Shown: positions 8,141 to 53,700 of the stretch, piece after piece | Layout: the number at the start of each line of letters is the position of its first letter | Position numbering within the stretch: the first letter of the stretch is position 1 | Source of the DNA: Phyllobates terribilis | Taxonomy: Eukaryota | Reading direction: 5' to 3' | DNA length: 64,000 bases | NCBI RefSeq assembly: GCF_046119375.1 | Contig: NW_027362773.1 | Span: forward strand, 4,402,001-4,466,000 | Position numbers and translations under genes: made by a program | Notes under the pieces: generated by a model | What the model saw: the letters and a program-made list of their open reading frames with translations, nothing else | What the model was told of the DNA's origin: nothing | The model's database searches: none

Positions 8141-8149
8141 TGTATATAT

Positions 8150-12272: not shown

Positions 12273-13839
12273 CACTGCTCAAAAAAATAAAGGGAACACT
12301 CCAATAACACATCCTAGATCTGAATGAATGAAATATTCTCATTGAATACTTTGTTCTGTACAAAGTTGAATGTGCTGACAACAAAATCACACAAAAATCA
12401 TCAATGGAAATCAAATTTATTAACCAATGGAGGCCTGAATTTGGAGTCACCCCCAAATTAAAGTGTAAAAACACACTACACGCTGATCCAACTTTGATGT
12501 AATGTCCTTAAAACAAGTCAAAATGAGGCTCAGTATTGTGTGCGGCCTCCACGTGCCTGTATGACCTCCCTACAATGCCTGGGCATGCTCCTGATGAGGT
12601 TGCGGATGGTCTCCTGTGGGATCTCCTCCCAGACCTGGACTAAAGCATCCGCCAACTCCTGGACAGTCTGTGGTGTAACGTGACGTTGGTGGATGGAGCG
12701 AGACATGATGTCCCAGATGTGCTCAATCGGATTCAGGTCTGGGGAACGGGCGGGCCAGTCCATAGCTTCAATGCCTTCATCTTGCAGGAACTGCTGACAC
12801 ACTCCAGCCACATGAGGTCTGGCATTGTCCTGCATTAGGAGGAACCTAGGGTCCACCGCACCAGCATATGGTCTCACAAGGGGTCTGAGGATCTCATCTC
12901 GGTACCTAATGGCAGTCAGGCTACCTCTGGCGAGCACATGGAGGGCTGTGCGGCCCTCCAAAGAAATGCCACCCCCACACCATTACTGACCCACTGTCAT
13001 GCTGAAGGATGTTGCAGGCAGCAGATCGCTCTCCACGGCGTCTCCAGACTCTGCCACGTCTGTCACGTGCTCAGTGTGAACCTGCTTTCATCTGTGAAGC
13101 GCACAGGGCACTAGTGGCGACTTTGCCAATCCTGGTGTTCTGTGTCAAATGCCAAGTGTCCTGCACAGTGTTGGGCTGTGAACGCAACCCCCTTCTGTGG
13201 ATGTCGGGCCCTCATACCCACCCTCATGGAGTCGGTTTCTAACTGTTTGTGCAGACACATGCACATTTTTGGCCTGCTAGAGGTCATTTTGCAGGGCTCT
13301 GGCTGTGCTCCTCCTATTTCTCCTTGCACAAAGGCGGAGGTAGCGGTCCTGCTGCTGGGTTGTTGCCCTCCTACGGCCCCCTCCACATCTCCTGGTGTAC
13401 TGGCCTGTCTCCTGGTAGCGCCTCCAGCCTCTGGACACTACGCTGACAGACACAGCAAGCCTTGCCACAGCTCACATTGATGTGCCATCCTGGATGAGCT
13501 GCACTACCTGAGAAACTTCTGTGGGTTGTAGAGTCCGTCTCATGCTACCACGAGTGTGAAAGCACAACCAACATTCTAAAGTGACCAAAACATCAGCCAG
13601 AAAGCATTGGTACTGAGACGTGGTTTGTGGTCCCCACCTGCAGAACCACTCCTTTATTGAGGGTGTCTTGATAATTGCCAATAATTTCCATCTATTGTCT
13701 ATTCCATTTGCACAACAGTATGTGAAATTGATTGTTAATCAGTGTTGCTTCCTAAGTGGACAGTTTGATTTCACAGAAGTTTGATTTACTTGGAGTTATA
13801 TTCTGTTGTTTAAGTGTTCCCTTTATTTTTTGAGCAGTG
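12273..13839 (-). mobile_element. Tc1 transposon, DD34E, frameshifted
   Basis: TA TSD both sides; TIR CACTGCTCAAAAAAATAAAGGGAACAC; ORF 12530-12961 MQDNARPH..WPARSPDLNPIEHIW with 34 residues between D and E; upstream HTH pieces 13111-13681. Confidence 0.92.
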
Positions 13840-14660
13840 TACTTATCATTATTGACTGAATGAATGGAAAAAATGAAACCACATCATTCAGATCCTGATA
13901 CATTATAACTGCAGTAAATGTAGGCGTGATCTGCTCACACGCGTGTGTGATGAAGTTTAAACTAGCAATGCAAAGTGATACTGACATGTGGATAGTGTCA
14001 CTTAGGATGGCTGGCAGCACCAATTCTGTTAGTTGGCGCTGTACAGCTCATTGAATTATATATGATAGGATTAGATACACAGACTGTGTCATACGATAGA
14101 ATTAGATACACGTCTCAGCAAACTACGAGACAGGGACTGGCCTTTGAAGGTACACAGGCCCACTTAGTGATGGATGCGTAATATCTTTGTGCACCTGTAT
14201 CTTACAAGAAGTGAGGTGAGTGTAACACAGCTATATCTATAATATAACCGGGGATGCATGTCTCGGTCTGAAGCCTTTATAGACTGCGCATGCGAAATGC
14301 GCAGTCTGGATCCAGACAGAAGAACGCATGGAGCTGTTACAGGTAAGAGGAGTGTATGCCGCCAGAGATCGCGGTATGCATAGACACTGAACGCATACCG
14401 TGATCTCCGGCGCCATACTTACCTGACCGGGAGGAGCGTTGCCGCGGTGCCTCTCTTTGCCGGAGACCGGGGCAGGAGTGAGGCGTCGGAATCGGTGCAT
14501 GCGCACATTTGCAGTGTGTCTTCAGCAAAATGGCGCCGGACAGCATGGTGCTTCAGTGCCGCACTCCTCCTCCGGCCTCAGGCAGAACAGAACTCAGCAG
14601 CGCTGGAGCACATAGAAAAAAGGTGAGTATAAGTGTTTATTTTTTTGCATGTTTGTACAG

Positions 14661-16050
14661 TGTGAAAGGGATGAGGGGGCCACACATACCAGGATTGTGG
14701 GGTGAGGGGGGACCATGCATACCAGGATTGGGGGGTGAGGGGACCATGCATACCAGGATTGGGGGTGAGGGGATCATGCATACCAGGATTGGGGGGTGAG
14801 GGGTATCACACATGCCAAGATTGGGGGGTGAGGGGACCATGCATACCAGGATGAGGGGACCATGCATACCAGAATTGGGGGTGAGGGGTGCCATGCATAC
14901 CAGAATAGGGATGAGGGGTACCATACATATCAGGATAGGAATGCGGGGTACCATGTATACCAGGATGAGGGATGGGTTGCCATGCATACCAGGATGAGAG
15001 GTATCGTGCATACCAGAATAGGGATGAGGGGTGACATGCATACTAGGATGAGGAATTGGGTGCCATGCAGAACAGGTTTCTGGGATGAGGAGGCCATACA
15101 TACCAGAATTGGGATAAGGGGTGCTATGCATACCAGGATGAGGGTTACCATACATACCAGAATAGGGATGAGGGGTACCATACATACCAAGATAGGGATG
15201 AGGGGTACCATGTAAACCATGATTGGGGATGAGGGGCCCATGCATACCAGGATAGGGATGAGGAGTGCCATGCATATCAGGATTGGGGATGAGGGGTGTC
15301 ATGCATATCAGGATTGGGGATGAGAGAGCCATGCATACCAGGATTGGGGATTAGGGGTACCATGCATACCAGGATTGGGGATGAGGGGTGCCATGCATAT
15401 CAGGATTGGGGATGAGAGAGCCATGCATACCAGGATTGGGGATGAGGGGTGCCATGCATACCAATATAGCGATGAGGAGTGCCATGGTGCCATGCATACC
15501 AGGATTGAGGATGAGGGATACCATAAATACCAGGATAGGGATGAGGGATGGGGTACCATGCATACCAGGATAGGATGAGGAGTACCACACATACCAGGAT
15601 TGGGGATGAGGGGTGCCACGCATACCAGGATTGGTGGTGAGGGGTGCCATGCATACCAGGATTGGGGATGAGGGGTGCCATGCCTTCCAGGATTGAGGTT
15701 GAGGGGTGCCATGCATACCTGGATTGAGGGTGAGGGGTGCCATGCATACCAGGATTGGGGGTGAGGGGTGCCATGCATACCAGGATTGGGGATGAGGGAG
15801 CCATGCATACCAGCATTGGGGATGAGGGTGCCATGCATACCAGGATTGGGGGTGAGGGGTGCCATGCATACCAGGATTGGGGGTGAGGGGTGCCATGCAT
15901 ACCAGGATTGGGGGTGAGGGGTGCCATGCATACCAGGATTGGGGATGAGGGAGCCATGCATACCAGGATTGGGGGGTGAGGGGTGCCACGCATACCAGGA
16001 TTGGGGATGAGGGGTGCCATGCATACCAGGATGAGGGGTGCCATGCATAC
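14661..16050. repeat. G-rich minisatellite, ~31 bp unit, roughly 45 copies
   Basis: Consensus CCATGCATACCAGGATTGGGGATGAGGGGTG repeated with variation; most homogeneous from ~15590 to 16040. Confidence 0.95.
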
Positions 16051-16330
16051 CATAGTGCTGCGGCCTCTACATATAGTTAATGGGCAGGGATGCAAAGAGT
16101 CAGATACCCACTGAACTAATATTGATGACCTATTCTAGAGATAGGCGATTAATTTCAAGTCCTTGATAATCACTTAAAAGGCCTGAGTAATTTAATAAAA
16201 TATAATAATTGAATGCATCTAAACCACACCAGAAAACAAAATATTTTTTATTGTTTTACAAACTAATTAACATGAAAAGCACGACAGTGCAAAGAACAGT
16301 TAGCAATGAAAATGTTTAGTGCAATGAAAA

Positions 16331-26489: not shown

Positions 26490-29400
26490 GGGGTGCACCT
26501 TTCAAAGACTGGAAAACATATATTTGGAAGTCGCCTTGCTATACTCATCAGGAGAGCTTTAAACTAGAACAATGTGGGAAGGGAAGCAAAAGTCCAGAAA
26601 GAGCTATACAGCTGACAAATACTATTGAGATCTCTGCTATTGGAAGTGGAAAGGAAGAATAAAGACAAAAAAATCTAAATAATAAAAATATGGGAGGAAG
26701 AAAAAACAATCACAAACTAAAATCTTTTTATACAAATGCACAAAGCATGGGCAACAAACAAGGAGAACTGGAACTACTAACGCAGGAAAAGAAATATGAT
26801 GTCATTGGAATCACTGAAACTTGGTGGGATGGTACACATATTCAACTTATTTGCAAGAAACAGACTTGATAAACGAGGAGGAGGTGTCGCATTGTATGTT
26901 AGAAAAGCGTATATCTGCACAGAGATTGAAGCTTTAGAGACTGGGAGTTCTGTGGAAACTGTTTGGGTAAGAATACAAGGAGAGAACAACAGAAAGGACA
27001 CCATTGTAGGCATTTACTACAGGCCACCTGGGCAAGCTGAAGATATGGATGAACTCTTTATGTATCAAATGACCAAGGTCTCCAAAAAAGTGTGGTCATT
27101 GGAGATTTCAACTATCCAGACATTTGTTGTGAATCTCTCTCAAGTAAAACTAACAGGTCAAGCAAATTCTTATCCTCTCTTGCTGTCAACTTTATCTTCC
27201 AAAAGGTAGGGAAGAAAACAAGGGGATCTGCTACTTTGGATTTTATCCTTATAAACAGGGAGGAAATGGTTGAGGAGGTAAGGGTGGCTGGGACCCTAGG
27301 AGGCAGTGATCATGCTATTATAGAATTTGGGTTAACTAGAGGAGGAAGACATGTGAAGACTCAAACTTCAAGGTTAGATTTTAGAAAGGCAGATTTTAAA
27401 CGACTCAGAAAGAGAAGAGGAGGGATCCAATGGCTGGATGTCCTTAAGGACAAAAATGTCCAGGAAAGATGGGAAATTTTTAAAAATGAGATTCTCAAAG
27501 CACAATCGCTAACAATCCCGAAAAGAAGGAAGAATGGGAAACATTTAAGGAAACCATGATGGATGAACACAGAACTTAAACACATGCTAAAAAGAAAGAA
27601 AGAAATGTTTTATCAAATGAAAAGAGGGACGCATATCTAAAGAAGATTATAATGCAGTCTGCAGAACCTGTAGGGCACGTATCAGGTTAGCTAAAGCTGA
27701 CAATGAATTAAGGCTTGCAAGAGATGTGAAAAGCAATAAAAAAGGATTTTGGGGGTATGTCAAAAGTAAAAGAAAAGTCAAAGATGCTATAGGATTTTTA
27801 CAGGATGAAAATGATGAAATGGTAAGAAAGGATGTTGAGAAGGCCGAACTTTTTAATTCCTATTTTGCATCTGCTTTCTCTCAGAAAGAAAATGCAACAT
27901 CAATTGATCTTCACTGTCCTATTAAAGGAATAGAAGAATCCAGGTTATCTGTAAACAGAAAGATTGTGAGGAATATTTAGCAAACATAAATGAGTTCAAG
28001 TCTCCAGGTCCAGATGAATTACACCCCAGAGTACTGAAGGAGATCGTAGAAGAAATTTTAGAACCATTCTCCATAATCTTTGAAAATTCTTGGAGAACAG
28101 GAGAAGTCCCAGAAGACTGGAGAAGAGCAAATGTTGTTCCTATCTTCAAAAAGGGGAAGAAGGTGGACCCAGGGAACTATAGGCCGGTGAGTCTGACTTC
28201 TACACCAGGAAAGATCTTTGAACAAATTATTAAACAACATGTATGTAAGTACCTGGATAAGAATGACGTGATTAAACAGAGTCAGCATGGGTTTGTAACT
28301 AACAAGTCATGTCAGACTAACTTAATTTCCTTCTATGACAGAATCACTGACTGGGTGGATCAGGGAAATGCTGTAGATATAGTATATCTTGACTTCAGCA
28401 AAGCATTTGACAAAGTATCTCACACCATCCTTATTGAAAAAATGACCAAGTATGGAATGGACAAGGTAACTGTTAGGTGGATTCATAACTGGCTTAGTGA
28501 TCGGACTCAAACAATGGCTGTTAATGGCTTCACATCCAGTTGGATGAATGTCTCAAGTGGGGTACCACAGGGCTCCGTCCTGGGACCTGTATTATTCAAC
28601 ATCTTTATCAATGATTTAGGTGAAGGAATTGAGGGTAAACTGATTAAATTTGCTGATGACACAAAGCTAGGAGGGATAGCTAATACTAGAGAAGAGAGAG
28701 AGAGGATTCAAAAAGACCTAAATAAACTGGAGCAGTGGGCAGCAACTAACAGAATGGTTTTTAACAGGGAAAAATGCAAAGTACTACATCTGGGCAAAAA
28801 AAAAAATGAAAAAAGCATATACAAAATTGGAGGAATAGAGCTAAACAATAGTACATGTGAAAAAGACTTATGTATACTAATAGATCATAGACTGAACATG
28901 AGTAAACAGTGTGATGCAGCAGCAAAAAAGGCAAATACAATTCTGGGATGTATTAACAGAAGCATACAGTCTAGATCACGTGAAGTCATTATCGCACTTT
29001 ACTCCTCTTTGATCAGACCTCATCTGGAATACTGTGTCCAGTTTTGGGCACCACATTTTAAAAAAGACATCGACAAACTAAACTGGTGCAAGTTCAGAGA
29101 AGAGCGACCAGAATGGTGACCGGTCTGCAAACCAAGTCCTATGAGGAACGGTTACAGGATTTGGGAATGTTTAGCTTACAAAAAAGAAGACTGAGAGGAG
29201 ACTTAATAGCTGTCTACAAATATCTCAAGGGCTGTCACATTGTAGAAGGATCATCTTTATTCTCATTTGCACAAGGAAAGACTAGAAGCCATGGGATGAA
29301 ACTGAATGGGAGGAGACACAGATTAGATATTAGAAAAAACTTTTTGACAGTTAGGGTGATCAATGAGTGGAGCAGGCTGCCGCAAGAGGTGATAAGTTCC

Positions 29401-29535
29401 CCTTCAATGGACGTCTTCAAACAGAGGTTGGACAGACATCTCTCTGGGATGATTTAGTGAATACTGCTTTGAGCAGGGGGTTGGACCAGATGACCCAGGA
29501 GGTCCCTTCCAACTCTACCATTCTAAGATTCTATG
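26490..29535 (+). mobile_element. CR1 LINE, near-complete ORF2 (endonuclease + RT) with frameshifts
   Basis: Endonuclease motifs (YTNAQSMGNK..GITETWW ~26730-26830; GDFNYP; SDHA in 27092-27559), RT ORF 28163-29119, C-terminal ORF 29086-29457, ATTCTAAGATTCTATGA tail. 5' boundary approximate. Confidence 0.92.
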
Positions 29536-30154
29536 ATCTGACCGCTGCGGGTTTGATGCTGCAGCTTCAAATCCGCAGCGGCTCCCTCCTGATCGTGGGC
29601 ACCTACCCAAACTTTGTTTAGTGATGAACAGGTGTCAATCAGACACCCTCATTACTAAACCTAAGTAAAGTAAAGAGTTAAATAAACACACACACTGAGA
29701 GTAAAACACTTTTTGAAATACAACAGACGCATTATTTAATCATTTAAATTAACCAATATACTCACCCCAGGTCTGACAGTAATCTAAGGGTTAAAGCAAT
29801 GTCCCACTTTATTTTATTCAAATATCTTTATTTAGCTCCAAAAAGCATTCATTGCTGTACAAATATGCATAAAAAGCATCAAAAATGCGATGAAAATCGT
29901 GGCAAAAGCACATTTTTGCCGCAGCGTTTTTTCTGCCAAGAGACACTGAAACTTTGCAGAAATTTCTGCAATCAATTCCTGAACATGTGCACATATCCTA
30001 AGTATACAGCTGTGGGCTGACATTAATAGCCTGGGAAGCTCCATGGGTATTACCCTCTTATCAGGCTGTAAACATCAGGCCCAGCTGTCCACTTTCCCTC
30101 TGCTGGTTAATAAAACTTAGGGGGATCCCAAGCAATTTTTTTCTGAAATGTAAG

Positions 30155-31365
30155 TGTAGCACCCTGAGGACTCGGCTGCTACAGGGGTATTACACCTCAA
30201 CCCAGAGGTGTGGTATTCCACTCCCGGGTAAGGATGGAGTGTGGGACTGAGCTCAGAAAGCTGCATGCACTACATACATCCCATTTCCGGGGGACAGAAC
30301 TACGGTACTCCCACCAGATATATGTGCAGGTACGACAGCGTCTGTCCCTGGCTGGAGTGGGAGGGGGGTGGAACATCCCAGTAGTGTAGGGGCAGATAGG
30401 GGGAGTAGTCTGGGTAAAGCTAGGAGCTCATTGGGTGCTGGTCACCTGAACTCACACATAGAGGGAGTATATATGGTGGGCACCATCTTAGAACAGGGTA
30501 GTCAGTCTGGAGTAGTCAGTGCAGAGCAGAGGAGCTCAGCCAGGAGGGCTGACAGGAGCTGTGGCTCCGGCTGGGCCCAGCTCCAGGGCCAGCCCTGCAG
30601 AGGGAGAGAGGAGAAAGGAAGGCCCAGAGAGGAAAAGAAGAGGGAACCCCAAGATCCCAGAATAAAGACAGAAGGGTGAAGGGTTGGCGGACAAGGGTAC
30701 CGGATCCCAAGCTGGCAGAGGCCAAAGCAAACCTTAGCCAGGAACCGGAGGTCGTGGTCAAGATTTGCCACGACCCTCACCAAATCCACCAGAATGGCAC
30801 ACCGAGCATAGGGTCAGGGAAGCCAGAGAAGGTTCAACCAACAAGAGACCCGAGGGAGCCGGACACAGGTGGATCCCTGGTGGGGACGGCCAGAGAGAGA
30901 GGGTCAGAAGGGAGCTCAGGACCACGCTCCGGAACTGCCTGGGGGTTGGCCGAGTCCAGGACCTGGTGGACGCAGCACGGCTCGGGTGGTCACTCAAGGC
31001 CAGAGTGACCAAAAGAACATCAGTAAGTAAAAACCCTGAACTGCACCTCCCGTCTCTGAGTCTGCTTACTACATCATCACTACCTCCATCATCCACATCT
31101 GCTGCCCTGAGGCCATACCCCTCCCGTTGGGCGTTATACCATCATCGCTGCACCCATATCACCGGCCTCAGCGGACTGTTCTGCAGCGGCGGCTTCAAAG
31201 CCGCACTCAACGGGTGGCGTAGTCGATCAAGTTAACATCTACTGCCATAGACTGCCACTTAGTTTTACACCCTGGGCACGGACCGGGTCACCGCCACAAG
31301 GACTACTACCCCCATCCAGATCTGGCTCCGGGTATCCCCTGAAACATGGCCCAGGGGGCGCGTCA
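30155..31365 (+). repeat. 5' LTR (1211 bp)
   Basis: TGTAGCACC..GCGCGTCA; TATA-like TATATAT ~30468; AATAAA at 30661. Confidence 0.95.
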
Positions 31366-31370
31366 ACTTT

Positions 31371-31388
31371 TGGCGTAGTCGGCAGGAT
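31371..31388 (+). promoter_or_regulatory. Primer-binding site complementary to the tRNA-Ser 3' end
   Basis: TGGCGTAGTCGGCAGGAT is the reverse complement of ATCCTGCCGACTACG-CCA, the 3' end of vertebrate tRNA-Ser(AGA/TGA type) as I recall it; lies 5 nt after the 5' LTR. Confidence 0.9.
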
Positions 31389-31678
31389 AACGTGCCCGCA
31401 ACTACCGGGTACTGCGTGCCTGAAGAAAAGTTCACGTTTACCTCAAAAAGAAGTCTCCCGCCAATTCCGGAGGGTCCCCGCCATCGGACGCGATCACGGG
31501 TCGTTTCCCGCTGGTTGCCCGCCATCTGCAGCTTTTTCCCGCCATCCACGGAGTTTCCCGCCACTGGGAGACGATTCCCGCCATCTGGGAAGATTTCCCG
31601 CCCTGGCAGAGCGGACGCCATTATGGGCGTGCCAGAGGGTGGCAAGAGGCCACCTCCCATCGTGGGCCAGGTCGAAGA

Positions 31679-33331
31679 ATGGCGCCAAAAGCGGAAACCG
31701 CCCCCACCAGCAGAGACTGTAATGCTAGAGATGTCCATCAGCGTGAGGGGACTGCCCCTGGATCTGATAATCACCGAGTTGCCCCGAGACCACCCTCAAT
31801 GTGGGCGGATACAGAACAAAAGAAAGAGGATGGGTGCAGCCTGGAGGAGTCTGGAGAGAGCGCACCCGGAGATGAGAAGTCTGGAGAGGAGTCTGGAGAA
31901 GTCGCACCCGGAGATGGAGGGAGAGTCAGGCAGCACCGACCCTGTGGTCAGGAGCAAGCAACCACCCCACTAGGCCTAGTGGAGATCCTGGCACAGCTTC
32001 CCCAAGACCGGGAGCGTGCACAGACCGCGCTGGAGGGCCTCGCACGGAGGATGGCCCGGGTGCAGCGAGAAACGCTGACGGAGTGGAGCAGAGAGATGGC
32101 CCTGCAAGCTGGAACCCGCCAGCGGAGCACGCCACCCGAGACGAGGAGTCAGACCGCCTCTGAGGATGGTGCAGGAGGAATGAAGGCCGGAGACGACGCC
32201 GAGGAAGGAGCTAACGAGACGGAGGCAGGTAAAGGGGACGTCACTACCCCAAGCCGGGAAACCGCGAGCCTGCCCCAGCTCCCCGTCGCAGAGCCCGAAA
32301 TTCCCCCTGCCGTGCCCGTCGCTGCATCGTCACCGCTCCAGACTAGGCCTCAAGCAGAAGCCGCGGCCGCGACCCCTGTGACGTCATGCGCCTCAACCCT
32401 GAGCGCGGCCAAGACGGAGACGCCACCGGCCTGGTCGCAGGGCCGAGTGCCCCCGGGCGCCGCAGTTCCAACAGCGCCCTCTACCTCCACGGAGCCACCG
32501 GCCTGGTCGCAAGGTCAGGTTCCCCCGGGCGCCGCCGTCTTCACGGTGCCCTTTACCTTTAGGGTGCCCCAAGCCTGGTCGCAAGGCCTGGTAAACCTGG
32601 GCGCCGCTGCCACCACCGCGCCCTCAACATCCAAAGTGCCGCACCTGGGTGAAGACTTGTTTGCCCAGCACACTTGCCCGGACGGGCAGCCCTTTGTGTG
32701 GCCACCGGAGTACTACCAACACCAACTCCAGAAGGAAAGGCCCCTGTGCGAGCCCCTGATTCCGCCTCCGGCGCCTGTCAAGATGACCCCGCTCTCGTTG
32801 GAGGAGGCGCAGTTTGAGTGGGACCCCGCAGGAGGAGACCTCATCGGGTTCACTCAGGAGACCCGGGCGGCCGCAGCTGAGCGTGCAGAGTGCTGCCGCC
32901 AGCAGTTGGAAGTCTTTGAGCGAGAACGGAGAGAGAGACGAGCCCGCGAGGAGCGGCTGCAAATACAAAGTGCAGAACAGAAGAGCCGGACCCGACGGAA
33001 CCCCCGTGCAGCTCATGGTCCCCGTGCCACCGGGACTGTAATTAAATTCCAACTGCAGCACGGTTGGGGTTTCATCCGGGATCACCGCGCCCCCGGCGAC
33101 GTCTTCGTGACCAGAAGAGATGTCGAGTCCCACCTACCGGAGGGACACAGAGGACGTGACCTATACCTGGGTGACGAGGTCACCTTCACCCGGCACCAAT
33201 GTGCCAAAGGACCCTACGCCCTTCATGTACACCGGCTGACGGAGGAAGAGCTGCGGTGTGAGGAGGAGCAAGAGGACCCGGATGGGTCTGAAGCTTACCC
33301 GCGAGAAGGAGCAGGAGGACGCCGTTACTAA
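31679..33331 (+). CDS. 550 aa protein: low-complexity/repeat N-terminus, two predicted helical segments, C-terminal cold-shock domain (aa ~450-520)
   Basis: Uninterrupted ORF with strong Kozak context (AGAATGG). GTVIKFQLQHGWGFIRDHRAPGDVFVTRRD..LYLGDEVTFTRHQCAKGPYALHV follows the CSD pattern (RNP1-like GWGFI, RNP2-like VFV). Confidence 0.85.
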   Translation: MAPKAETAPTSRDCNARDVHQREGTAPGSDNHRVAPRPPSMWADTEQKKEDGCSLEESGESAPGDEKSGEESGEVAPGDGGRVRQHRPCGQEQATTPLGLVEILAQLPQDRERAQTALEGLARRMARVQRETLTEWSREMALQAGTRQRSTPPETRSQTASEDGAGGMKAGDDAEEGANETEAGKGDVTTPSRETASLPQLPVAEPEIPPAVPVAASSPLQTRPQAEAAAATPVTSCASTLSAAKTETPPAWSQGRVPPGAAVPTAPSTSTEPPAWSQGQVPPGAAVFTVPFTFRVPQAWSQGLVNLGAAATTAPSTSKVPHLGEDLFAQHTCPDGQPFVWPPEYYQHQLQKERPLCEPLIPPPAPVKMTPLSLEEAQFEWDPAGGDLIGFTQETRAAAAERAECCRQQLEVFERERRERRAREERLQIQSAEQKSRTRRNPRAAHGPRATGTVIKFQLQHGWGFIRDHRAPGDVFVTRRDVESHLPEGHRGRDLYLGDEVTFTRHQCAKGPYALHVHRLTEEELRCEEEQEDPDGSEAYPREGAGGRRY

Positions 33332-33797
33332 AGTACGGTAAAGAGAACTGTAAAATAGTTACCCGTCGGGGTACAAGAACTGTTAATAGTTAAAATATGT
33401 TCCCCGTTGGGACAAGTGTGAACTGAAACCCGTGTGTCCCCTATCCATTAACAGGCTGAGGACTGTGAACAGCCATTCCCTAATTCCCACTGGTCGAGGA
33501 CTGAGAGCGGCCATCCTCCTTGTACATAGTTGCGCTTCCTAAGGCGCCCCCTACTGGTTTTATAGGAAACTATTGTATTTTCTACAAGAGACTGTCGCAC
33601 TTTTCCCGGTCACAAGTTGCACCGTGGCCGGAGGAACAAGAATATTAACAATGAAAAGTTTATTATAAAAAGTTTTATGCTGCTGATAATATATATATGA
33701 TGTTTTATATGTTTATGATGTTTTGAAAAAAAAAAAAAATTGTATGTTTTTGTATGTTTTTGCTCTTTTACAGCCCGAGGACGTGCTGTGATTTACC

Positions 33798-33806
33798 AGG
33801 GGGGAA
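33798..33806 (+). promoter_or_regulatory. Polypurine tract
   Basis: AGGGGGGAA directly abutting the 3' LTR start TGTAGC at 33807. Confidence 0.85.
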
Positions 33807-35017
33807 TGTAGCACCCTGAGGACTCGGCTGCTACAGGGGTATTACACCTCAACCCAGAGGTGTGGTATTCCACTCCCGGGTAAGGATGGAGTGTGGGACT
33901 GAGCTCAGAAAGCTGCATGCACTACATACATCCCATTTCCGGGGGACAGAACTACGGTACTCCCACCAGATATATGTGCAGGTACGACAGCGTCTGTCCC
34001 TGGCTGGAGTGGGAGGGGGGTGGAACATCCCAGTAGTGTAGGGGCAGATAGGGGGAGTAGTCTGGGTAAAGCTAGGAGCTCATTGGGTGCTGGTCACCTG
34101 AGCTCACACATAGAGGGAGTATATATGGTGGGCACCATCTTAGAACAGGGTAGTCAGTCTGGAGTAGTCAGTGCAGAGCAGAGGAGCTCAGCCAGGAGGG
34201 CTGACAGGAGCTGTGGCTCCGGCTGGGCCCAGCTCCAGGGCCAGCCCTGCAGAGGGAGAGAGGAGAAAGGAAGGCCCAGAGAGGAAAAGAAGAGGGAACC
34301 CCAAGATCCCAGAATAAAGACAGAAGGGTGAAGGGTTGGCGGACAAGGGTACCGGATCCCAAGCTGGCAGAGGCCAAAGCAAACCTTAGCCAGGAACCGG
34401 AGGTCGTGGTCAAGATTTGCCACGACCCTCACCAAATCCACCAGAATGGCACACCGAGCATAGGGTCAGGGAAGCCAGAGAAGGTTCAACCAACAAGAGA
34501 CCCGAGGGAGCCGGACACAGGTGGATCCCTGGTGGGGACGGCCAGAGAGAGAGGGTCAGAAGGGAGCTCAGGACCACGCTCCGGAACTGCCTGGGGGTTG
34601 GCTGAGTCCAGGACCTGGTGGACGCAGCACGGCTCGGGTGGTCACTCAAGGCCAGAGTGACCAAAAGAACATCAGTAAGTAAAAACCCTGAACTGCACCT
34701 CCCGTCTCTGAGTCTGCTTACTACATCATCACTACCTCCATCATCCACATCTGCTGCCCTGAGGCCATACCCCTCCCGTTGGGGGTTATACCATCATCGC
34801 TGCACCCATATCACCGGCCTCAGCGGACTGTTCTGCAGCGGCGGCTTCAAAGCCGCACTCAACGGGTGGCGTAGTCGATCAAGTTAACATCTACTGCCAT
34901 AGACTGCCACTTAGTTTGACACCCTGGGCACGGACCGGGTCACCGCCACAAGGACTACTACCCCCATCCAGATCCGGCTCCGGGTATCCCCTGAAACATG
35001 GCCCAGGGGGCGCGTCA
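33807..35017 (+). repeat. 3' LTR (1211 bp)
   Basis: Same length as the 5' LTR; 5 substitutions found by eye. Confidence 0.95.
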
Positions 35018-35076
35018 TAAGCATTTATTAACAAATTACATATAGCGCAAAGCATATAGCATATATCTCACTCACA

Positions 35077-35179
35077 TATTTCTATCTATTTATCTATCTA
35101 TCTAGCTATCTAGCTATCTATCTATCTATCTATCTATCCATCTGTATATCAATCTATGAATCTATCCAACCATCCAAAC

Positions 35180-35213
<34 letters not shown>

Positions 35214-35290
35214 TTATCCATATATGGATCAATAAATATATATATAGATTAGATAGATATACAGATAAATAGATAGATCTTGATATATGG
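35077..35290. repeat. (ATCT)n/(AGAT)n microsatellite
   Basis: Runs of ctat/atct followed by an inverted gata tract. Confidence 0.9.
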
Positions 35291-38876: not shown

Positions 38877-40157
38877 CTAAACCACCGCCGCCTGCAGGAC
38901 CCTGCGTCCCAAGGCCGCATCGGCGGAAGCACTCACGTCCACTTTATAAAATTTAGTAAAAGTGTGAACGGAGCGCCAGGTAGCCGCCCGGCAGAGCTGC
39001 GCTGCTGAGACCCCCTGATGAAAAGCCCACGACGAACCAACAGCTCTAGTGGAATGAGCTCGAACCTTAACCGGACAAGGCTCGCCCCTGAGCCGGTACG
39101 CTTCCAGGATAGCCGAACGTATCCACCGAGCTATAGTGTCCTTGGAGGCCCGCTGACCACGCCGACGACCAGCAGGAATAACTAAAAGAGAGTCCGACTT
39201 CCGAAACCCTTGCGTGATTGACAGATAGAACTTCAAAGCCCGCACCAAATCCAACGAGTGCAAGGCTCGCTCCTTTGGACTTTTCGGATTCGGACAGAGG
39301 GAGGGCAACATGATGTCCTGATTGACGTGGAAACGCGACACCACTTTAGGCAAAAAATCGCCACGGGTACGAAGCACCACTCGATCCGGGTGGAACTCCA
39401 GAAAAGGGGGCGAGCAAGACAGTCCGGCCAACTCAGAAACCCTTCTCAAGGAGGTGACCGCCACCAGGAAGGCCACCTTCCAAGAAAGTAAGTAAAGCGT
39501 AGTTGAATCCATAGGCTCAAACGGTCCATGATGAAGAGCCTCCAAGACTAGATTGAGCCGCCAAAGAGCCACAAACGCCCTCCAAGGCGGAAACTGACAT
39601 GCAACCCCGCGAAAAAATGAGCGCACATCCCTGCGCGAGGCAATAGCCTTCCGAAAAAGCACAGATAGTGCAGATACCTGACCCCGCAAGGTACCAACTG
39701 CCAGACCCTTGGACAAATCACATTGCAGAAAAGCCAAGAAGTTGGGAATGGAAAAAACCCTCGGGTTCCTTGACGATCCAGAACACGATGAATAGAAGGC
39801 CTCCCAAGTTCTGTGATAAATCCTGGTCGTAGCTGGACCTCTGGCCGCCCGTAAGGTGGCAATGACCTCGGCCAAAAACCCACGACGGGTCAAGATCTCG
39901 GTCTCAACTGCCATGCCGTCAAACGAAGCGACTTCAGGTCCGGATGACGAATGGGCCCTTGGGATAACAGGTCTGGGCGAAGAGGCAGTGGAAACGGAGG
40001 CGCCGCCAGAAGAGACACCAGCGTTGAATACCACGCCCTCCGCGGACAATCCGGCGCCACCAAAATTGCCGGAATCCGTTCGAGTTTGATCCGCCGGATG
40101 ACCAGAGGAAGCAAGGATACCGGCGGAAACAAGTAGATCAGCTCGAACTGGTCCCAC
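38877..40157 (-). CDS. DIRS tyrosine recombinase, 426 aa, apparently intact
   Basis: Catalytic motifs present: SLRRVSEL (R), AHSTR (HxxR), AATW (W), TFTKFY (Y). Confidence 0.88.
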   Translation of the reverse strand: MGPVRADLLVSAGILASSGHPADQTRTDSGNFGGAGLSAEGVVFNAGVSSGGASVSTASSPRPVIPRAHSSSGPEVASFDGMAVETEILTRRGFLAEVIATLRAARGPATTRIYHRTWEAFYSSCSGSSRNPRVFSIPNFLAFLQCDLSKGLAVGTLRGQVSALSVLFRKAIASRRDVRSFFRGVACQFPPWRAFVALWRLNLVLEALHHGPFEPMDSTTLYLLSWKVAFLVAVTSLRRVSELAGLSCSPPFLEFHPDRVVLRTRGDFLPKVVSRFHVNQDIMLPSLCPNPKSPKERALHSLDLVRALKFYLSITQGFRKSDSLLVIPAGRRRGQRASKDTIARWIRSAILEAYRLRGEPCPVKVRAHSTRAVGSSWAFHQGVSAAQLCRAATWRSVHTFTKFYKVDVSASADAALGRRVLQAAVV

Positions 40158-42044
40158 GGAGCCACCAGAGCATCTACCGCCACAGCCTCCGGGTCCCTGT
40201 ACCTGGACATAAACATCGGAATCCTGGCGTTCAGCCTGGATGCCATCAAATCCACCTGGGAGTCCCCCAAAGGGAGCACAGCAGTGTAAAAACTTCCGGA
40301 TGAAGACTCCATTCTCCGAGATCCACCTGCTCGCGACTGAGGAAGTCCGCCGTGATATTCATCACTCCTGGGATGTGAATCTCGGAGATGGCTGGGACCC
40401 TGGACTCGGCCCATACCAGGATCCGAGAGACCTCCATCATGAGTCTGAAACTCCTCGTCCCGCCCTGATGGTTGATATATGCGACCACTGTCGCATTGTC
40501 TGTTTGAATCCGGACCGGCAGACCGCTCAAGGGGATCGTCCTATGTCGGAGGCAGAGAAAAATCGCCCTCAACTCCAGGATGTTGATCGGCAGAGACGAC
40601 TCCTCTGACGACCAGACCCCCTGAACCCAGAGATCGTTCCAACCCCCCCCCCCAGCCAGTCAGGCTGGCATCGGTGGTAATGACCGACCACCGTGGGAGG
40701 AGGAAGGATTTCCCCAGGGATAAAGCCTTAGGACGTAACCACCATCCAAGAGACTCTCGCACCCTGCGGGAGATACCGACACAGCGATCTAGCGAAGCTG
40801 GCGATCGGTCCCAACGGGTCAGAATAAGATTTTGGAGACCCCGGGAATGAAATTGTGCAAAAGGTACCGCTTCCATTGCCGCCACCATCAGACCCAGAAG
40901 GCGCATACACTTCCGAAGGGGCATTGCCATCGCCGAACTCATAACCTGTACATGGTGTCGAAGGTTCGCTTGTTTGTCCGGAGGCAGGGACACCACCGCT
41001 TGGAACGTGTCGAAATGCATCCCCAAGAACAGGATTGACTGCGACGGCTCCAAAGACAACTTCTTCCAATTGACCAGCCACCCGAAAGTCCTCCAGGTGC
41101 TGAAGGGAGAGATCGCGAGCCGTTACCGCCTCCTCCGCTGTGGATGACACAATCAACAGGTCGTCCAGGTAGGAGAGAATCGTAACTCCTTGCTTTCGAA
41201 GGAGCGCCATGAGCGGCGCCAGAATCTTTGTAAAAACCCTGGGCGCCGAGGCCAACCCGAATGGTAGGGCCACAAACTGGTAATGGGCCTGACCTATGGC
41301 GAACCGCAGGAAGAGCTGGTGAGCCCTGCCGATAGGGACATGTAAATAGGCGTCGCGGATGTCGATCGACACCAAAAAATCGTGCTGCGACAGGACCGCC
41401 ACGACGGAGCGAAGAGACTCCATACGGAATTTCCGGGTCCGGACATGCAAATTCAAATCTTTGAGGTCCAGAATAGGGCGAAACTTGTCCTCCTTTTTGG
41501 GAACCACAAAAAGGTTGGAGTAAAACCCCCTTCCCTGGTCCTCCAGCGGAACCGGAATCACCACACCCTGCTGCAGAAGAGAGTCTACCTCCTGCAGCAG
41601 AGCGGCAGCTAGCTTGGGCTCGGACGGCATGCGCGACTGACGAAACCTGTCCGGGGGTCGAGAATGAAACTCTATGAAATAACCTTCCGACATAACCCGC
41701 GTCACCCAGGCGTCCGATACGTGTGATGCCCAAATAGACCCGAATTGTAGAAGACGACCTCCCACCCGAGAGCCCTCGAGAGGGTTCCTGGCGTCAGTCT
41801 GCCTTAGCTGGCTTTTTGTCAACCTCCCGCTTGTCCTGACGGAAATGTTGTTTCCAGGGAGTATGGGATTTCTGGGAGGACTTCTTTCCGGAAGGCGAGG
41901 GACGATCCGATCTCCAAGAAGGCTGACCGAACCGACCCCGGGGCCGAAAGGACCGACGACCACTACCGGTACTTGACCTGCCGGATGTAGTAACCGCTGC
42001 CTTTCGCTGCGGCAAGGCCATATCTTTGGCCTTGGCTTTAGCAA
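39890..42044 (-). pseudogene. DIRS pol (RT, RNase H, methyltransferase-like), at least three frameshifts
   Basis: YSNLFVVPKK, IDIRDAYLH, LPFGLASAPRVF, YLDDLLI; TTDASLTGWG; VDLMASRLN..YLFPP. Frame breaks near 41085, the C11 run at ~40643-40653, and ~40255. Confidence 0.9.
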
Positions 42045-43195
42045 TCAGCTCCGTGAGGTCCGAACCAAACAGCTGACCTCCCTTGTACACCAGACTCAGC
42101 AAACCCTGTTTGGCTACTGCGTCACCGGTCCACTGTTTAAGCCACAGTGCTCTCCTGACAGAGACGGTCGAGGATTGAGCCCTGGACATCACCGCAATAG
42201 TATCCAGCACTGCGTCCCTGCCATATCGGGCCGCTTCTTCCAAGAGCTGGAAGAGCCTTTCCACTTCAGACAGTGGAGTTCCATCTTGCCATGCCGTCCG
42301 CAGCTGATCCAACCATCGCAGTGAAGCCTCACCAGCCCACATGGCCCCCAAGGCCGCTCGGAATCCGTGACCCGCGGCCTCGTAGATGGACTTTGCCGCT
42401 AACTCCGTCCTTCTGTCCAGCGGGTCCTGGAGACTGGCCTTCCCTTTAACAGGAAGCAAAGAGGATTTGCTCAGCTGAGACAATGGCACATCCACTTCAG
42501 GAGAGGGGACCCAATTAGTGATCGTTTCCGTGGAACAGGGATAGAGGGCATCAAACAACCACGCCCCTTGGAAACGTTTATCCGGACACAGGCGTTCTTT
42601 TTCCACCGCCTTGTTAAGTTCCTCGTGCATCGGCAGCGTCGAGCGAGCCCGACGCGACTCCTGATACAGCCGGGCCGATCTGCCAGGGCGCTCCGTCACC
42701 TCTTCAGACAGTTGTAACGCTTTCCGAAAGCGAAGCAGAGCGACCCCGCCGATTCTCTTCATCAGAATCGGAGATCTCACCAGAAGAGTCTGTCGGCGAT
42801 TCTGAAGCCTCCGACGCACTGCGCGGAGGAGACGGCGCCGCCACAAGCCTGTGACGCTTCTTGCTTCTAGACGTCGGTTGAGACTTAGCAGAGACCCAAT
42901 GACCCAGGAGGTCAGACAGACTGTCAATGGAGCGAGAGAGCGCCTCCACCTTAACATCACTGAGACCCCCAACTAGCGTCGAACCTGACGCCGTTGAAGA
43001 CCCCGGCGTATCAGATACGCGTGACCGATCCTGAAGCGGACCGGGAGAGAGGTCCGCGCCCCCTGGTCCCTGATCCGACATGCCCCCACACAGTTGCGAG
43101 CGTCGCGGATAAGGCGGTAATAACCTTACAATGGGTGCAGTAACCAAGGATGTGTGAATTCCACTATCACAGCCTGTTCTTGCACAAAAAATCAC
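41794..43195 (-). pseudogene. DIRS gag-like ORF1 (LAP2alpha-like C-terminal region), frameshifted
   Basis: RRALWLKQWTGD..YKGGQLFGSDL in 41794-42972; Ser-rich linker and broken CxxC motifs in 42704-43195. Confidence 0.7.
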
Positions 43196-45426
43196 GTGGC
43201 ACTGAAGGGTTAAAGCTCCTCCTAGAAGGAGAAAAGCTACCCCAGCGGCCTGCGGAGTAAAAGTTAACCTGACACACTAGAGAGAAGCACCCTCTGATCC
43301 CAGAAGGGTGCACCTCCAGAGAGGGTTAACAGCCTGATGGGCCAGACCCCGTTCAGAAGGGGTTAACGCTACTGATCCACACTACCCTTTTTGTGAGGTG
43401 TGTGTCAGAGCCATCTCAGCATGGGAAGAAGCAGCGCCGTATAAAGCACACCCTGTCAGCTAGAACATAAGGAAAGTGCTCTGCGCTGTAGAAGGAACTT
43501 TCTGCCTAAAAGGCAGGAGAGACTCACCAGCTGGCGTAGAAACTGCTCTTCTCGGTGTGATGAGAGCAGGGAGTAGGAGCCGCAGCACGAGGATGGACGC
43601 TGGCCGGAAGAAGAAGGGGCTGGGGCATCTCCAGCGCGCGCTTTCCCGGCACTTCCTGTCACAAACTGGCAGCAGAGAGACGCTAAGCCACGCCCCCCGC
43701 CGAAAATGAACAGAGCGCGCAAATCCTCCGTCCCCGCTCCCCTGCCCGCTGAGGATCAAGCGCTGCATGCAGAGGAGAAATCCCTCCAAGCAGAAAAAAA
43801 CAGCAGTCACCACAAAAACACATATACAGTGACAGCGGCTGCCGCAGCAGCCGCTGAAAGCACTCCATAAGAGCACTTACCCAGCTGAGTGCCACAGGGA
43901 CCCCCAGGGATGTGTGGCGCCGTGGCCCTTGCTCCCCCCCACGGCGGAGCGCGCAGGGACCCCACAAGAGCGGTGTGCGTCTCCGCCAGGGAGCGCCCTG
44001 TATCCCCCGGGGCCAGCAGAGTTCTGCGGGGACCTCCTTAGGGGGTACGCAGATCCGCCAGGGGAGGGTCAGGGGTCCCAGCAGCGCTGAGACCCCCTGA
44101 GACCTCTAGACCACGGGGGGTCCAGGTCTCCGGATAAAAATAATAAAATCTTCTGAGGAGCTGCAAAGGCAGCGACTATCCTCTGCGACCTCAAATTTAA
44201 AACTGAGGAACATGGGAGTAGGAGGAGCCTAAGCTGGAGGGGTCGGTCGTCACTTTTTATAAATCTGAGGTGAACTATCCTGTGGGGCTCCGCCTACCCA
44301 CTAGTAATGGATCTGTGTCTCCCTTCCTTCCCTTCTGCTGCTGAAATGTTGCCTTTTAGGCTCATGGAGGCGGAAACTTTCCACAACCTCATGGTGGCGG
44401 CGGCCAGGTGTCCATACTCGGTCCGCAGTCGCCACTATTTCTCCCAGTATCGTCTCCGCCTTCCACAAGTGCGAGTCCCAGAAAATTACCACTGCCCTTT
44501 CCAGGGCACTTAAGTGGGAAGGACAGCCTAACCACAAACACGTGGACAAGTGAATGGGGCCAGGGACGGTACATCTCACTGACGCATGTCACAGGGTTAA
44601 TATTGTGCTCGGTTTCCTAGACAACGACCAAATTATGCATGATGGTTTGATCATCCATCTCCCTAGCTTTGTGCTACTTGGAAAGCAAGCGCAAGTATGC
44701 AGCCAACCACCCACCCACAGGCTGCAATACTAATCTGCCACATTTCTGGACTGCTTTCTTGCAATTGAAATGTTGCCTTTTAGGCTCTTGTAGGCGGAAA
44801 CTTTTCACAACCTCATGCCGGGGGCGGCTGGGTGCCCATACTCGGTTCCCAGACGCCACTATTTCTCCCGGTACCGACTTCGCCTTCCACAAGCCTGGGT
44901 CCCAGAAAATGACCCCTGCCCTCCCCAGTGCACTTACTGGGAAGGACCGCCTAACCACAAACACGTGGACAGGTGAATGTGGCCAGGGATGGTACGGAGC
45001 CAGTCCACAGTAAAGAAAAAAAAAAACAGCCATAAAGTGTCCGCGAACCTTCCCACACTCTTTTCTTAGCCAGGGCTGCTTCTCGGCAGGATTGGACGGG
45101 CCCACCGGTGGGCCTTGGCTTCTCCATCAGGAGAGTTCATAGTGCCGAGGTGAGGTAGTGATTATTATAGGGGCCACCATCTCCTTACTTTTCAGCTGGT
45201 ACTTTTCTGTGGGAATCAGCTTAGCTCCAACCAGCTTGGAATATTTCCAGTGGTTTGGTACCCAGTACCAGAAGCGAAACCATCCACAATTTCCTTCTCA
45301 GGAATTTTATTTGGCAGATTGAATGGCTGCCCAAATACATTAGTTTCTCACAAAGGAGCTGAAGATACTGAGTGGCAGTAGGTGCAAGTTTGTCCAGCGT
45401 AATAGTTATCAGAGGGAGAGCAGAGA

Positions 45427-50782: not shown

Positions 50783-53700
50783 AAAGATGTAGTTACTTAC
50801 CGGTAACAGGATTTCTCAGAGCCCATGACGGCACCACGGAGAGAGGGGATCGACCCTTCAAGGACAGGAAACCTACAGATAAAAAGGGCGGTACTTCTCT
50901 CCTGCATCAGTTGTTTACAGAGCACGAGGGGACCTCCAGCTTAATAACAGAATATTGAACATTATTATGATGCTCATCAGGAACACCATGTGACTATGTA
51001 TGAATAACAAAAAAATAAGTGTGCACACCAACGCGTGAAGGGAGGGAATGTACGGGTGCCGTCATGGGCTCTGAGAAATCCCGTTACCGGTAAGTAACTA
51101 CGTCTTTCTCTTTGCCCCATGACGGCACCGCAGAGAGAATTACAGAGAAATGTAACATTTGGGAGGGACCACTGCTTCCAGAACCCTTCTACCATAAGTA
51201 AAGTCTGAAGAAGAGGCTAGGTCCAGCCGATAATGATTAACCCCTTTACAGCCTGGGACGTATTAGTACACACCAGGCTGTAACCCCCGGTTCAGTGAGG
51301 GCTCCGGCGCTGAGCCCGCACTGAACCAAGGCACATGTCAGTTGATTCTTACAGCTGACATGTGCCCGCAACAGCCGCGGGTGGAATCGCGATCCACCCG
51401 CGGCTGTTAACATGTTAAATGCCGCTGTCAATCTCTGACAGTGGCATTTAACATCGCCACACCGGAAGCACGGCATTAGCCCCGCCCATCGGTGACCCCG
51501 TCACATGATCACGGGTCACCGATGGGTGGTCATAACAACCATGGGTCAGCCGCAGACCCCAGCGGTTGTCATGTAAAGATCGCTATGAGCGCCACCTAGT
51601 GGTCGGCGCTCATAGCACAGATCCATTTCTGCTACATAAAGGTGATCAGCTCATCACTTCTATGTAGCAGAGGCAATCATACAAGTGCTGCTTCTAATAT
51701 CCTATGGAGACTATAGAAGTATGCAAAAAGTGTAGAAAAAATGTTTTTAGAAATATTAAAAAAATATAAAAGTTTAAATCACCCCCCTTTCGCCCCATTC
51801 AAAATAAAATAATAAAAAAAAAAACACATACACATATTTGGTATCGCCACGTTCAGAATCGCCCGATCTATCAATATAAAAAAAATAATAATCCGATCGG
51901 TAAACGGCGTAACGAGAAAAAATTCTAAACGCCAGAATTACGTTTTTTGGTCGCCGCAACATTGCAATAACGGGCGATCAAAACATTGGATCTACCCCAA
52001 AATGGTATCAATAAAAACTTCAGCTCGGCGCGCAAAAAATAAGCACTCACCCGGCCCCAGATCCCAAAAAATGGAGACACTACGGGTCTCGGAAAATGGC
52101 GCCATTTTTTTTTTAGCAAACTTTGGAATTTTTTTTCACCACTTAAATAAAAAAGAACCTATACATGTTTGGTGTCTACAAACTCGTAATGACCTGGAGA
52201 ATAATAATGGCAGGTCAGTTTTATCATTCAGTGAATGTGGTAAAAAAAAAATAAAAAAAAACATCTGTGGTATTTCACTTTTTTGCAATTTCACGGCACT
52301 TTTTTTCCCGTTTTCCCATACACTATATGGTAAAACCAGTAATGTCGTTCAAAAGTACAACTCGTCCCGCAAAAAATAAGCCCTCACACGGCCATATTGA
52401 CTAAAATATAAAAACGCTATGGCTCTGGGAACAAGGGGAGCAAAAAACGAAAATTCAAAAACGGAAAATCCCAGGGTTGCGAAGGGGTTAAAGAATCTAG
52501 AGGGAGATGACCATGTAGCAGCTCTACATATCTGTTCTATCGAAGCCCCAGCTCTTTCCGCCAAGGAGGCTGCCACTGCTCTTGTCTAGTGAGCTTTTAG
52601 ATTCTCCGGGGTGGCTTCCCCACGTGCTGAGTATGACAGGGTGATGGCATCTCTTATCCATCGCGCCAACGTGCCTTTAGAAGTTTCCGCCCCTTTCAAG
52701 GTCCCTGAAAGCACACAAAGAGAGCCCTGTCCTTCCTACACTCCTGCATGAACGCTAGGTACTGAATTAGGCACCTTCTGACATCTAGTGTATGTAAGTC
52801 CCTTTGTCCCTTGTTTTTAGGGTTGAGGCAAAAGGGAGGGTGATCTCCTGAGATCTATGAAAACGTGACGCCACTTTTGGTAGGAAGGCTGGATCTGTTT
52901 TAAGGACAACTCTATCCTCAAGATTTGTGTGAATGGAGGGTCTGCAGATAATGCCTGGATATCACTAACTCTGCGTGCTGACGTGAGAGCTACTAGTAGT
53001 GATGTTTTAAGGGACAGGGTTCTTAGAGATGCGTCAGCCAAGGGCTTGAAGGGTGGTTTGGTTAGAGCTGTGAGGACTAAGTTTAGATCCCAAGGAGGCG
53101 TGATCCGAGAAGGGATAGGTCTAGCCGATGCCCTAACGAACCTAGATATCCCTCTATTCCTAGCAAGGTCTGCTGCGATCTGAAATTTCAGGGTACTCGT
53201 GGCTAGGCCCTTTTCCAACCCCTTCTGCAGAAATTCTAAAATGGCTGACAGTGGAACCCCTCCATCCAGTAGCATAGCTAACGGGGAAGGGCAGAGGGGG
53301 GGGTCGCCCCGGGCCCCGCACTCTGAGGGGGCCCACCCGGAGCTACACTATTGTAACCATGTCCCCCCAGAAGGGTCTATCAAGATGACCTTTGCTCTGT
53401 CCTCCCTGATCTTTTTCAGAACTGCTGGAATCAGAGCAATCAGAGGGAAAGCATAGCCTTGAGGAAAATTCCATGGAATCGTGAAGGCGTCCAACGCTAC
53501 GGGGTTCCCTTTAGGGTCTATTGAGCAGAACTGCTCCACTTTCATGTTCCCACTGTTGGCGAAGAGGTCTATGGTAGGACGTCCCCACATCTCTATGATC
53601 TGACTGAACACTGATTCTTTCAGTTCCCACTCGCCATGTCTCAGCTGGGTTCTGCTCAGGTAGTCTGCCCTGCAAATTTCTAACCCCCTTATGTGTAGGG

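Follow-up and report, generated by a model that had tools for sequence, protein, structure and literature searches.

How does a retroelement with no capsid or polymerase gene, whose sole recognisable protein domain is a cold-shock domain (CSD), multiply in a frog genome? The question is raised by a complete long terminal repeat (LTR) element of 4863 bp in Phyllobates terribilis. It lies at 30155-35017 (+) of the window, the stretch of 64,000 nucleotides analysed here (RefSeq assembly GCF_046119375.1, contig NW_027362773.1, positions 4,402,001 to 4,466,000, forward strand). Our data show that it is an LTR retrotransposon that codes for a protein but is not autonomous, and that the gene it carries is not gag; this conclusion is well supported. 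The genome holds at least 22,000 elements of this CSD type, which we propose to be satellites of a co-resident Ty3/Gypsy family, here called the helper.

The window element has all the hallmarks of an LTR retroelement, and its structure was re-measured as the initial annotation had described it. The two LTRs (30155-31365 and 33807-35017, both +) are 1211 bp long, end in TG..CA and differ by 5 mismatches (99.59% identity), and perfect target-site duplications (TSDs) of TAAG lie at 30151..30154 and 35018..35021. The 18-nt primer-binding site (PBS; 31371..31388, +) pairs with tRNA-Ser: the genome has a tRNA-Ser(TGA) gene (L114) whose 3' end plus CCA is its complement; the 3' end of tRNA-Ser(AGA) is presumably identical. 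A helper-like polypurine tract (PPT; 33798..33806, +) adjoins the 3' LTR. The interior between the LTRs measures 2441 bp, and motif scan and Pfam agree that gag and pol, with its protease, reverse transcriptase (RT), RNase H and integrase, are absent from the element. The six frames of the interior contain neither YxDD/FxDD nor D[ST]G[AS] nor CCHC motifs, and its one HHCC-like match, on the minus strand, is a chance match. The sole Pfam domain of the long frame is CSD (PF00313; E 3.8e-7, with a score of 30.3 bits where the cut-off is 27).

The family is large. Genome-wide, the junction of LTR end and PBS occurs 63,569 times (control 0), the family PPT-LTR junction 23,369 times and the CSD codon motif 22,239 times (reversed controls 0 in both cases), all counted as exact matches with duplicates included. 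A copy count above 22,000 disposes of the possibility that the element is single-copy. The main sample consisted of the first 40 LTR-PBS junctions in listed order and contained 19 CSD-type elements, 20 gag-pol Gypsy elements and 1 that was neither, so that satellite about equals helper in copy number. One of the 19 (L045) is interrupted by another, nested RT element. CSD-type elements are 4.3-5.2 kb long, and the family may amount to about 110 Mb (23,000 x 4.8 kb, an estimate with duplicates included), or about 1% of a 10 Gb genome, which pol-based surveys of frog genome growth would miss.

One intact open reading frame (ORF) of 550 aa had been claimed for the window copy. The stop-free stretch is present (31679-33331), but it is a frameshift chimera: near 31954 the window copy shifts frame relative to all five open copies compared, and about 90 of the 550 codons lie off the family frame. 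The frameshift junction has one occurrence in the whole genome and is private to this copy. In open copies the ORF starts at the ATG matching 31623 and encodes 557-609 aa. In the window copy the frame of the ORF start (31623..31954, +) ends at a stop at 31973, and the remainder (31955..33331, +) is out of frame with it. The window copy is a recent insertion with a broken ORF. The ORF is open elsewhere in the family. Among 20 of the 39 nearest other copies (L011-L030), all share the layout of the window copy and have no additional kilobases that could hold pol. They fall into only 7 flank groups, and many of them are therefore segmental duplicates. A single frame runs from the ATG through the CSD in 13 of the 20 (5 of the 7 groups; 557-571 aa), and in one of these five groups an in-frame deletion leaves an ORF of 393 aa. 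In the PBS-junction sample, 8 of 18 CSD-type copies scored are open from the start through the CSD (558-609 aa). Satellite arrays or duplicated segments are the setting of many near copies; three LTRs are present in L020, and L021 is extended in tandem.

The gag-pol elements of the sample provide the partner that the initial annotation had predicted, a Gypsy/Ty3-type element with the same LTR ends and tRNA-Ser PBS. Their LTRs are about 970-1045 bp long and their interiors mostly 5.8-6.0 kb. Pfam analysis of two of them found a PNMA-like Gag with a CCHC knuckle and a pol whose domains run protease, RT, RNase H, integrase, which identifies the helper as Ty3/Gypsy. In both satellite and helper the LTR starts with TGT..CACCC and has a GCG.GTCA-type end, and after 10 of the 40 sampled elements with unclear ends were left out, a perfect 4-bp TSD was found in 30 of 30 (15/15 of each kind). 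The median identity of LTR pairs is 99.6% in 16 CSD-type elements and 99.1% in 17 helpers. The wheat study PMC9744471 recognises satellites by the same PBS, by conserved LTR termini and TSD length and by the same time of activity, and all of these were found here. Satellite and helper further share their PBS, some 200 nt of leader and, in the LTR, the final 340 nt. In the window element this corresponds to the U5 side of the 5' LTR (31026..31365, +; 70-82% by blastn to autonomous Gypsy elements, trees mixing both kinds) and to the leader (31389..31622, +), which contains short CCCGCCAT-type repeats and is a putative packaging signal. These shared sequences make it highly probable that helper proteins perform the packaging, the priming from tRNA-Ser and the integration of the satellite.

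The U3 side of the 5' LTR (30155..31025, +) is family-specific, its helper counterpart being unrelated except for the terminal bases. Some similarity of promoters is a further criterion of PMC9744471; the first 600 nt of the LTR gave an identity of 0.55-0.59 to helper LTRs, for a shuffled baseline of 0.55, and short common motifs may be present. The first 300 nt of U3 are 79-92% invariant among 10 CSD-type copies. A test for a coding LTR found no codon periodicity among 10 LTRs, in which indels blur the signal. A TATA-like motif at 30468 and AATAAA at 30661 are candidate signals. At the other end, the 3' untranslated stretch (33332..33797, +) includes a pyrimidine tract followed by CAG (33757-33773, CAG at 33773), which looks like a splice acceptor and is a candidate for one; the same tract with AG stands about 25-35 nt above the PPT in satellite and helpers (e.g. 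L035, L062).

Satellite and helper do not keep their shared parts separate. A tree built from the final 300 bases of the LTR does not unite the CSD-type copies in one clade (approximately unbiased (AU) test, p 0.0002), and the rejection of a single clade holds without L067 and L045 (AU p 0.0036). One copy, L043, has a U3 that is 89% like that of the window element and a leader nearer to helpers (0.85) than to the window element (0.70). An older wave has a different primer. Sixteen divergent CSD copies, picked for likeness to proteins of other frogs, are older, and their readable primer sites differ, matching a tRNA-Ser(CGA) gene (L117). The junction with this older PBS occurs 3,471 times, and 14 elements from the first 15 listed comprise 9 gag-pol relatives and 5 of CSD type. 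A joint U5 tree was built from 20 hand-chosen rows (9 young and 11 old), without L102, L108 and L110. Its main division is by primer, helper and satellite alternate in it 8 times, and a single clade of CSD-type copies is rejected (AU p 6e-64). The chimera L111 joins a gag start to a CSD end within CSD-type LTRs, and its interior includes 540 nt that match neither. In retroviruses, template switching is established for RNAs packaged together, and the U5 mosaicism and L111 are as would be expected from it. The mixed U5 trees and the gag/CSD chimera point to co-packaging with the Gypsy helper. In four copies (L113, L115, L116 and L118) the PBS runs on into further tRNA-Ser bases, through the T-loop. 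These appear to be fossils of primer read-through; one of the four continues into a CSD-type interior. Read-through copies inflate pattern counts of tRNA genes.

The same samples bear on another origin, in which the element arose by deletion from an autonomous family with this ORF next to its gag-pol, and the selection took place in that family. CSDs adjoin gag-pol in 46 endogenous retroviruses (ERVs) of birds, as reported in PMC12287698, and a rare master family could escape sampling. Against this, none of the sampled gag-pol elements has a CSD in its own interior (0/20 with the young PBS and 0/9 with the older PBS), so the ORF was not found beside gag-pol as the initial annotation had allowed that it might be; the CSD of L101 belongs to a CSD-type element that lies inserted in an old gag-pol element. 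Nor is there gag or pol on the same strand beside the CSD in any of the 16 divergent copies (0/16). Among 35 CSD matches from the first 16 Mb of contig C1, 30 are found 1.55-1.91 kb below a PBS, and the 5-7 kb range contains none; for two of the rest, both from the L045 locus, the distances are 8.3 and 12.0 kb, and the last three lack a PBS within 15 kb. The short layout is also constant across subfamilies with a synonymous divergence (dS) of up to about 0.8. We therefore regard a deletion derivative as very improbable.

The protein itself is built of several parts. The ORF remainder encodes a helical block, a disordered region rich in Pro, Ala and Thr, a long helix, the CSD and an acidic tail. 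Three 72-bp repeats within the ORF (32422..32637, +; PPAWSQG units, repeat family D19), a 45-residue Glu/Arg-rich helix (32855..32989, +) and the CSD (33029..33232, +), which is nearest to Y-box proteins, can be located in the window copy. A model of the 157 C-terminal residues of a related copy has the 45-residue helix and a five-strand barrel, with a predicted local distance difference test score (pLDDT) of 72.8, and a fold search with it matched the CSDs of CspA and YB-1. The full-length model (mean pLDDT 40, predicted template modelling score 0.19) is good for rough secondary structure only; no capsid-like fold was found in this low-confidence model, and no similarity of the CSD protein to helper Gag was detected. 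A modelled complex of helper Gag with the helix-plus-CSD part scored 0.00 and weighs neither way. In the profile ranking YBX1/2 came first (39.7 bits), followed by CspA (35.2), Lin28 (24.9) and CARHSP1 (23.4); the lead of YBX over the next is about 4.5 bits, in an alignment that spans a long loop with a one-residue gap. Single-sequence and fold searches placed bacterial Csp slightly above YBX. A Y-box origin of the CSD is likely, though not certain, from these comparisons. The 150 profile matches were mostly multi-CSD proteins scored by repeat number and were set aside; the two that were looked up come from dinoflagellate sets.

Relatives of the helix-plus-CSD block came solely from dendrobatoid gene models, those of the frogs Phyllobates terribilis, Ranitomeya variabilis, R. 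imitator and Anomaloglossus baeobatrachus. Absence outside dendrobatoid frogs carries little weight because gene sets mask repeats. Four gene models (P0151, P0152, P0153 and P0154) fuse the CSD block to R3HCC1, a transposase-like protein, a MIF4G protein or an astacin protease, and represent either annotation artefacts or exonisation. Four sequencing runs of unsure kind, kept as contigs, covered all 30 bins with many differences and have no bearing on expression, starts or splicing.

In a census of 39 distinct CSDs with YB-1 numbering, the equivalents of F74, D83, F85 and K118 are kept in 37-39 of 39 (F74 in 38/39, F85 in 37/39). The Y72 equivalent is mostly Trp and the E121 equivalent is always Tyr. 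The binding surface of the CSD thus appears to be kept but altered.

Selection on the protein was estimated as the ratio of nonsynonymous to synonymous change (dN/dS), pairwise over 12 open natural ORFs. The ratio is 0.08 for the CSD, 0.09 for the helix block before it, 0.24 for the N-proximal helical block, 0.45 for the Pro/Ala-rich region, 0.68 for the first 75 codons and 0.28 for the whole ORF, and shifted-frame controls gave 1.15 and 1.35. The CSD and the preceding helix are under strong purifying selection, their ratios being far below the value near 1 that the initial annotation had named as a sign against its reading. Constraint from the frame being kept open alone was rejected as an explanation, since it would not yield a dN/dS of 0.08. 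Variants shared among CSDs favour third codon positions (10:4:45 by codon position) and singletons over the ORF do not (82:87:92), which indicates that selection acted while the lineages replicated and not after insertion. The first 60 codons had no third-position excess in comparison with old copies (299:265:257). No protein-level selection was seen in the first 60-75 codons; the constraint on them is probably at the nucleic-acid level, and they may belong to the cis signal.

Selection on lineages of a 22,000-copy family would be most simply explained by a benefit to the RNA that encodes the protein. [quoted passage not shown] The element would be transcribed from its own U3. Its RNA would enter helper particles by means of the helper-type leader and be copied by helper RT from tRNA-Ser, and helper integrase would insert the copy by using the helper-type LTR ends. 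Template switches would keep the U5 and PBS of the satellite matched to the current helper. The CSD protein would bind single-stranded RNA, with a preference for the RNA that encodes it, and may stabilise, store or route this RNA in germ cells, which would make it a stronger competitor for helper Gag and Pol; the protein would give an edge and not be strictly required. YB-1 supports the production of human immunodeficiency virus, murine leukaemia virus and mouse mammary tumour virus through RNA (PMC6040738), which is consistent with such a role.

Several points weigh against this own-RNA parasite reading. The sampled elements come from the first 5 Mb of one contig, and the pairwise dN/dS values are not independent. 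The U3 is not common to the helper, so co-expression with the helper is assumed. W65, F74, F85 and H87 form part of the YB-1 binding surface (PMC7498358), and the W65 equivalent is always Lys (0/39 Trp) and the H87 equivalent is never His (0/39), which means that two base-stacking residues are replaced; RNA binding may therefore be weak or different. Three deletions that remove the CSD recur at 31, 158 and 130 sites, and most of the CSD is missing in 4 of 18 sampled copies. Because CSD-less variants sit at many sites, the protein is probably not strictly needed in cis. These variants reflect either replication without their own protein or recurrent deletion at short breakpoint repeats, and some of the deletion sites are segmental or tandem duplicates.

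The deletions at 31-158 sites also fit a different relationship, in which the dependence on the helper is unchanged and the CSD protein acts in trans on the host. It would counter Y-box-type masking or the silencing of RNA in germ cells, and any element RNA in the cell would profit, that of the helper included. The two partners would then be mutualists in part, and copies without the CSD would be cheaters. The near 1:1 abundance with the helper across two waves (19:20 and 5:9) agrees with it, as do the fixed changes of the binding face, which would fit a changed target, and the report that ova of another poison frog express Gypsy elements at a high level (PMC6278860). With a product shared among 22,000 copies, however, coding mutants should be able to spread, and yet the dN/dS of the CSD is 0.08 and the frameshift of the window copy is private. 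We consider action in trans unlikely on balance. It can be extended to a scenario of similarly limited credence, in which a satellite lineage of dendrobatoid frogs took up a domain of Y-box type, remodelled the binding face of that domain and employs it to oppose germline RNA control, to the benefit of satellite and helper alike. When the primer tRNA changed, the satellite would have followed its helper by adopting U5 and PBS, the pair being comparable to a virus and its satellite, and this joint picture is equally tentative.

It is also conceivable that the protein works on DNA, annealing or protecting single-stranded intermediates of reverse transcription or binding its own U3 to drive transcription. 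The CSD of YB-1 binds single-stranded DNA with the same surface (PMC7498358), and the acidic tail and the family-specific U3, with its high invariance in the first 300 nt, would suit this role. A protein without capsid or Gag similarity has no evident way into the particle, however, and the helper supplies its own CCHC nucleocapsid, so a DNA-side role seems improbable. The same facts make unlikely the earlier suggestion that the CSD replaces nucleocapsid, since helper Gag has a CCHC knuckle and the CSD protein has neither a capsid-like fold nor similarity to Gag.

Other repeats surround the element. A TATC-type microsatellite (35057-35268) lies just to its right, and a minisatellite of 30-31 bp units occupies 14646-16067. 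A DIRS-like element (38877-43276, -) has a LAP2alpha-type gag, RT and further long ORFs, one of which looks tyrosine-recombinase-like by eye and had no Pfam match; a second, decayed piece seems to lie at 52800-56100. Two CR1-like long interspersed element copies (26781-29457, +, and 8148-9635, -) are 95-97% alike and mutually inverted, and RT was confirmed in the first. Pieces of Tc1/mariner transposase are found at 5162-6252, 6911-7690 and 12530-12982, with DDE_3 confirmed in the first, and inverted ends at 6575-6782 and 7869-8076 flank the second.

In non-autonomous LTR elements the usual course is loss of the genes or retention of gag. The CSD family keeps an unrelated RNA-binding gene of host type, and this gene is under strong selection. 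This raises the question of what benefit an accessory protein brings to an element without its own capsid or polymerase. No account of a CSD satellite family was found in the literature outside subscription papers and repeat libraries, and the term 'cold shock' is absent from the accessible text of PMC6278860, PMC10886601 and PMC12822217. The protein resembles YBX1/YBX2 in its best profile match and in a Pro/Ala-rich region before the CSD; its identity to them is about 33%, and it differs in having its CSD near the C-terminus with a long helix before it. Large retrotransposon derivatives (LARDs) are non-autonomous LTR elements with LTRs, PBS and PPT and no mobility proteins, moved in trans. 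The window element resembles them and TRIMs (terminal-repeat retrotransposons in miniature) in these respects. Unlike TRIMs, which by the definition given in PMC10886601 are under 1 kb, it has 4863 bp and a selected ORF.

The Xenopus elements 1A11 and Xretpos reportedly have CCHC knuckles; the ORF of the CSD family has no gag or CCHC match in Pfam. The Xenopus laevis elements 1A11, Xretpos(L) and lambda-olt 2-1 are described as pol-less LTR elements with a single ORF (PMC4585706), and the present family is like them a frog LTR element with one ORF and no pol. In that description 1A11 encodes a Gag-like 71 kDa protein, has 20-50 internal copies, is thought immobile and has no helper named. The present family is set apart from 1A11, by description, in that its ORF is not Gag-like, its copies exceed 22,000, its insertions are young and its helper is identified. 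The non-autonomous wheat elements RLG_Sabrina and RLG_WHAM have RLG_Wilma as helper (PMC9744471), and the frog family is like these Gypsy satellites of high copy number, pol-less and tied to its helper by LTR termini, PBS and age. The wheat pairs, as reported, share little beyond termini, a short motif and the PBS, whereas here about 340 nt of LTR and the leader are shared and exchanged, and the gene encodes a host-type RNA-binding domain. The mixed U5 trees, the change of primer in step and the chimera provide unusually clear fossil evidence of co-packaging between helper and satellite. Host-type CSDs were captured repeatedly in the 46 bird ERVs (PMC12287698), which are described as retroviruses classed by RT with the CSD as an extra. 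Here the CSD is the sole recognisable domain of a pol-less Gypsy satellite, and purifying selection on it was measured. Together, the bird ERVs and the frog family suggest that CSD capture is a recurring adaptation of retroelements.

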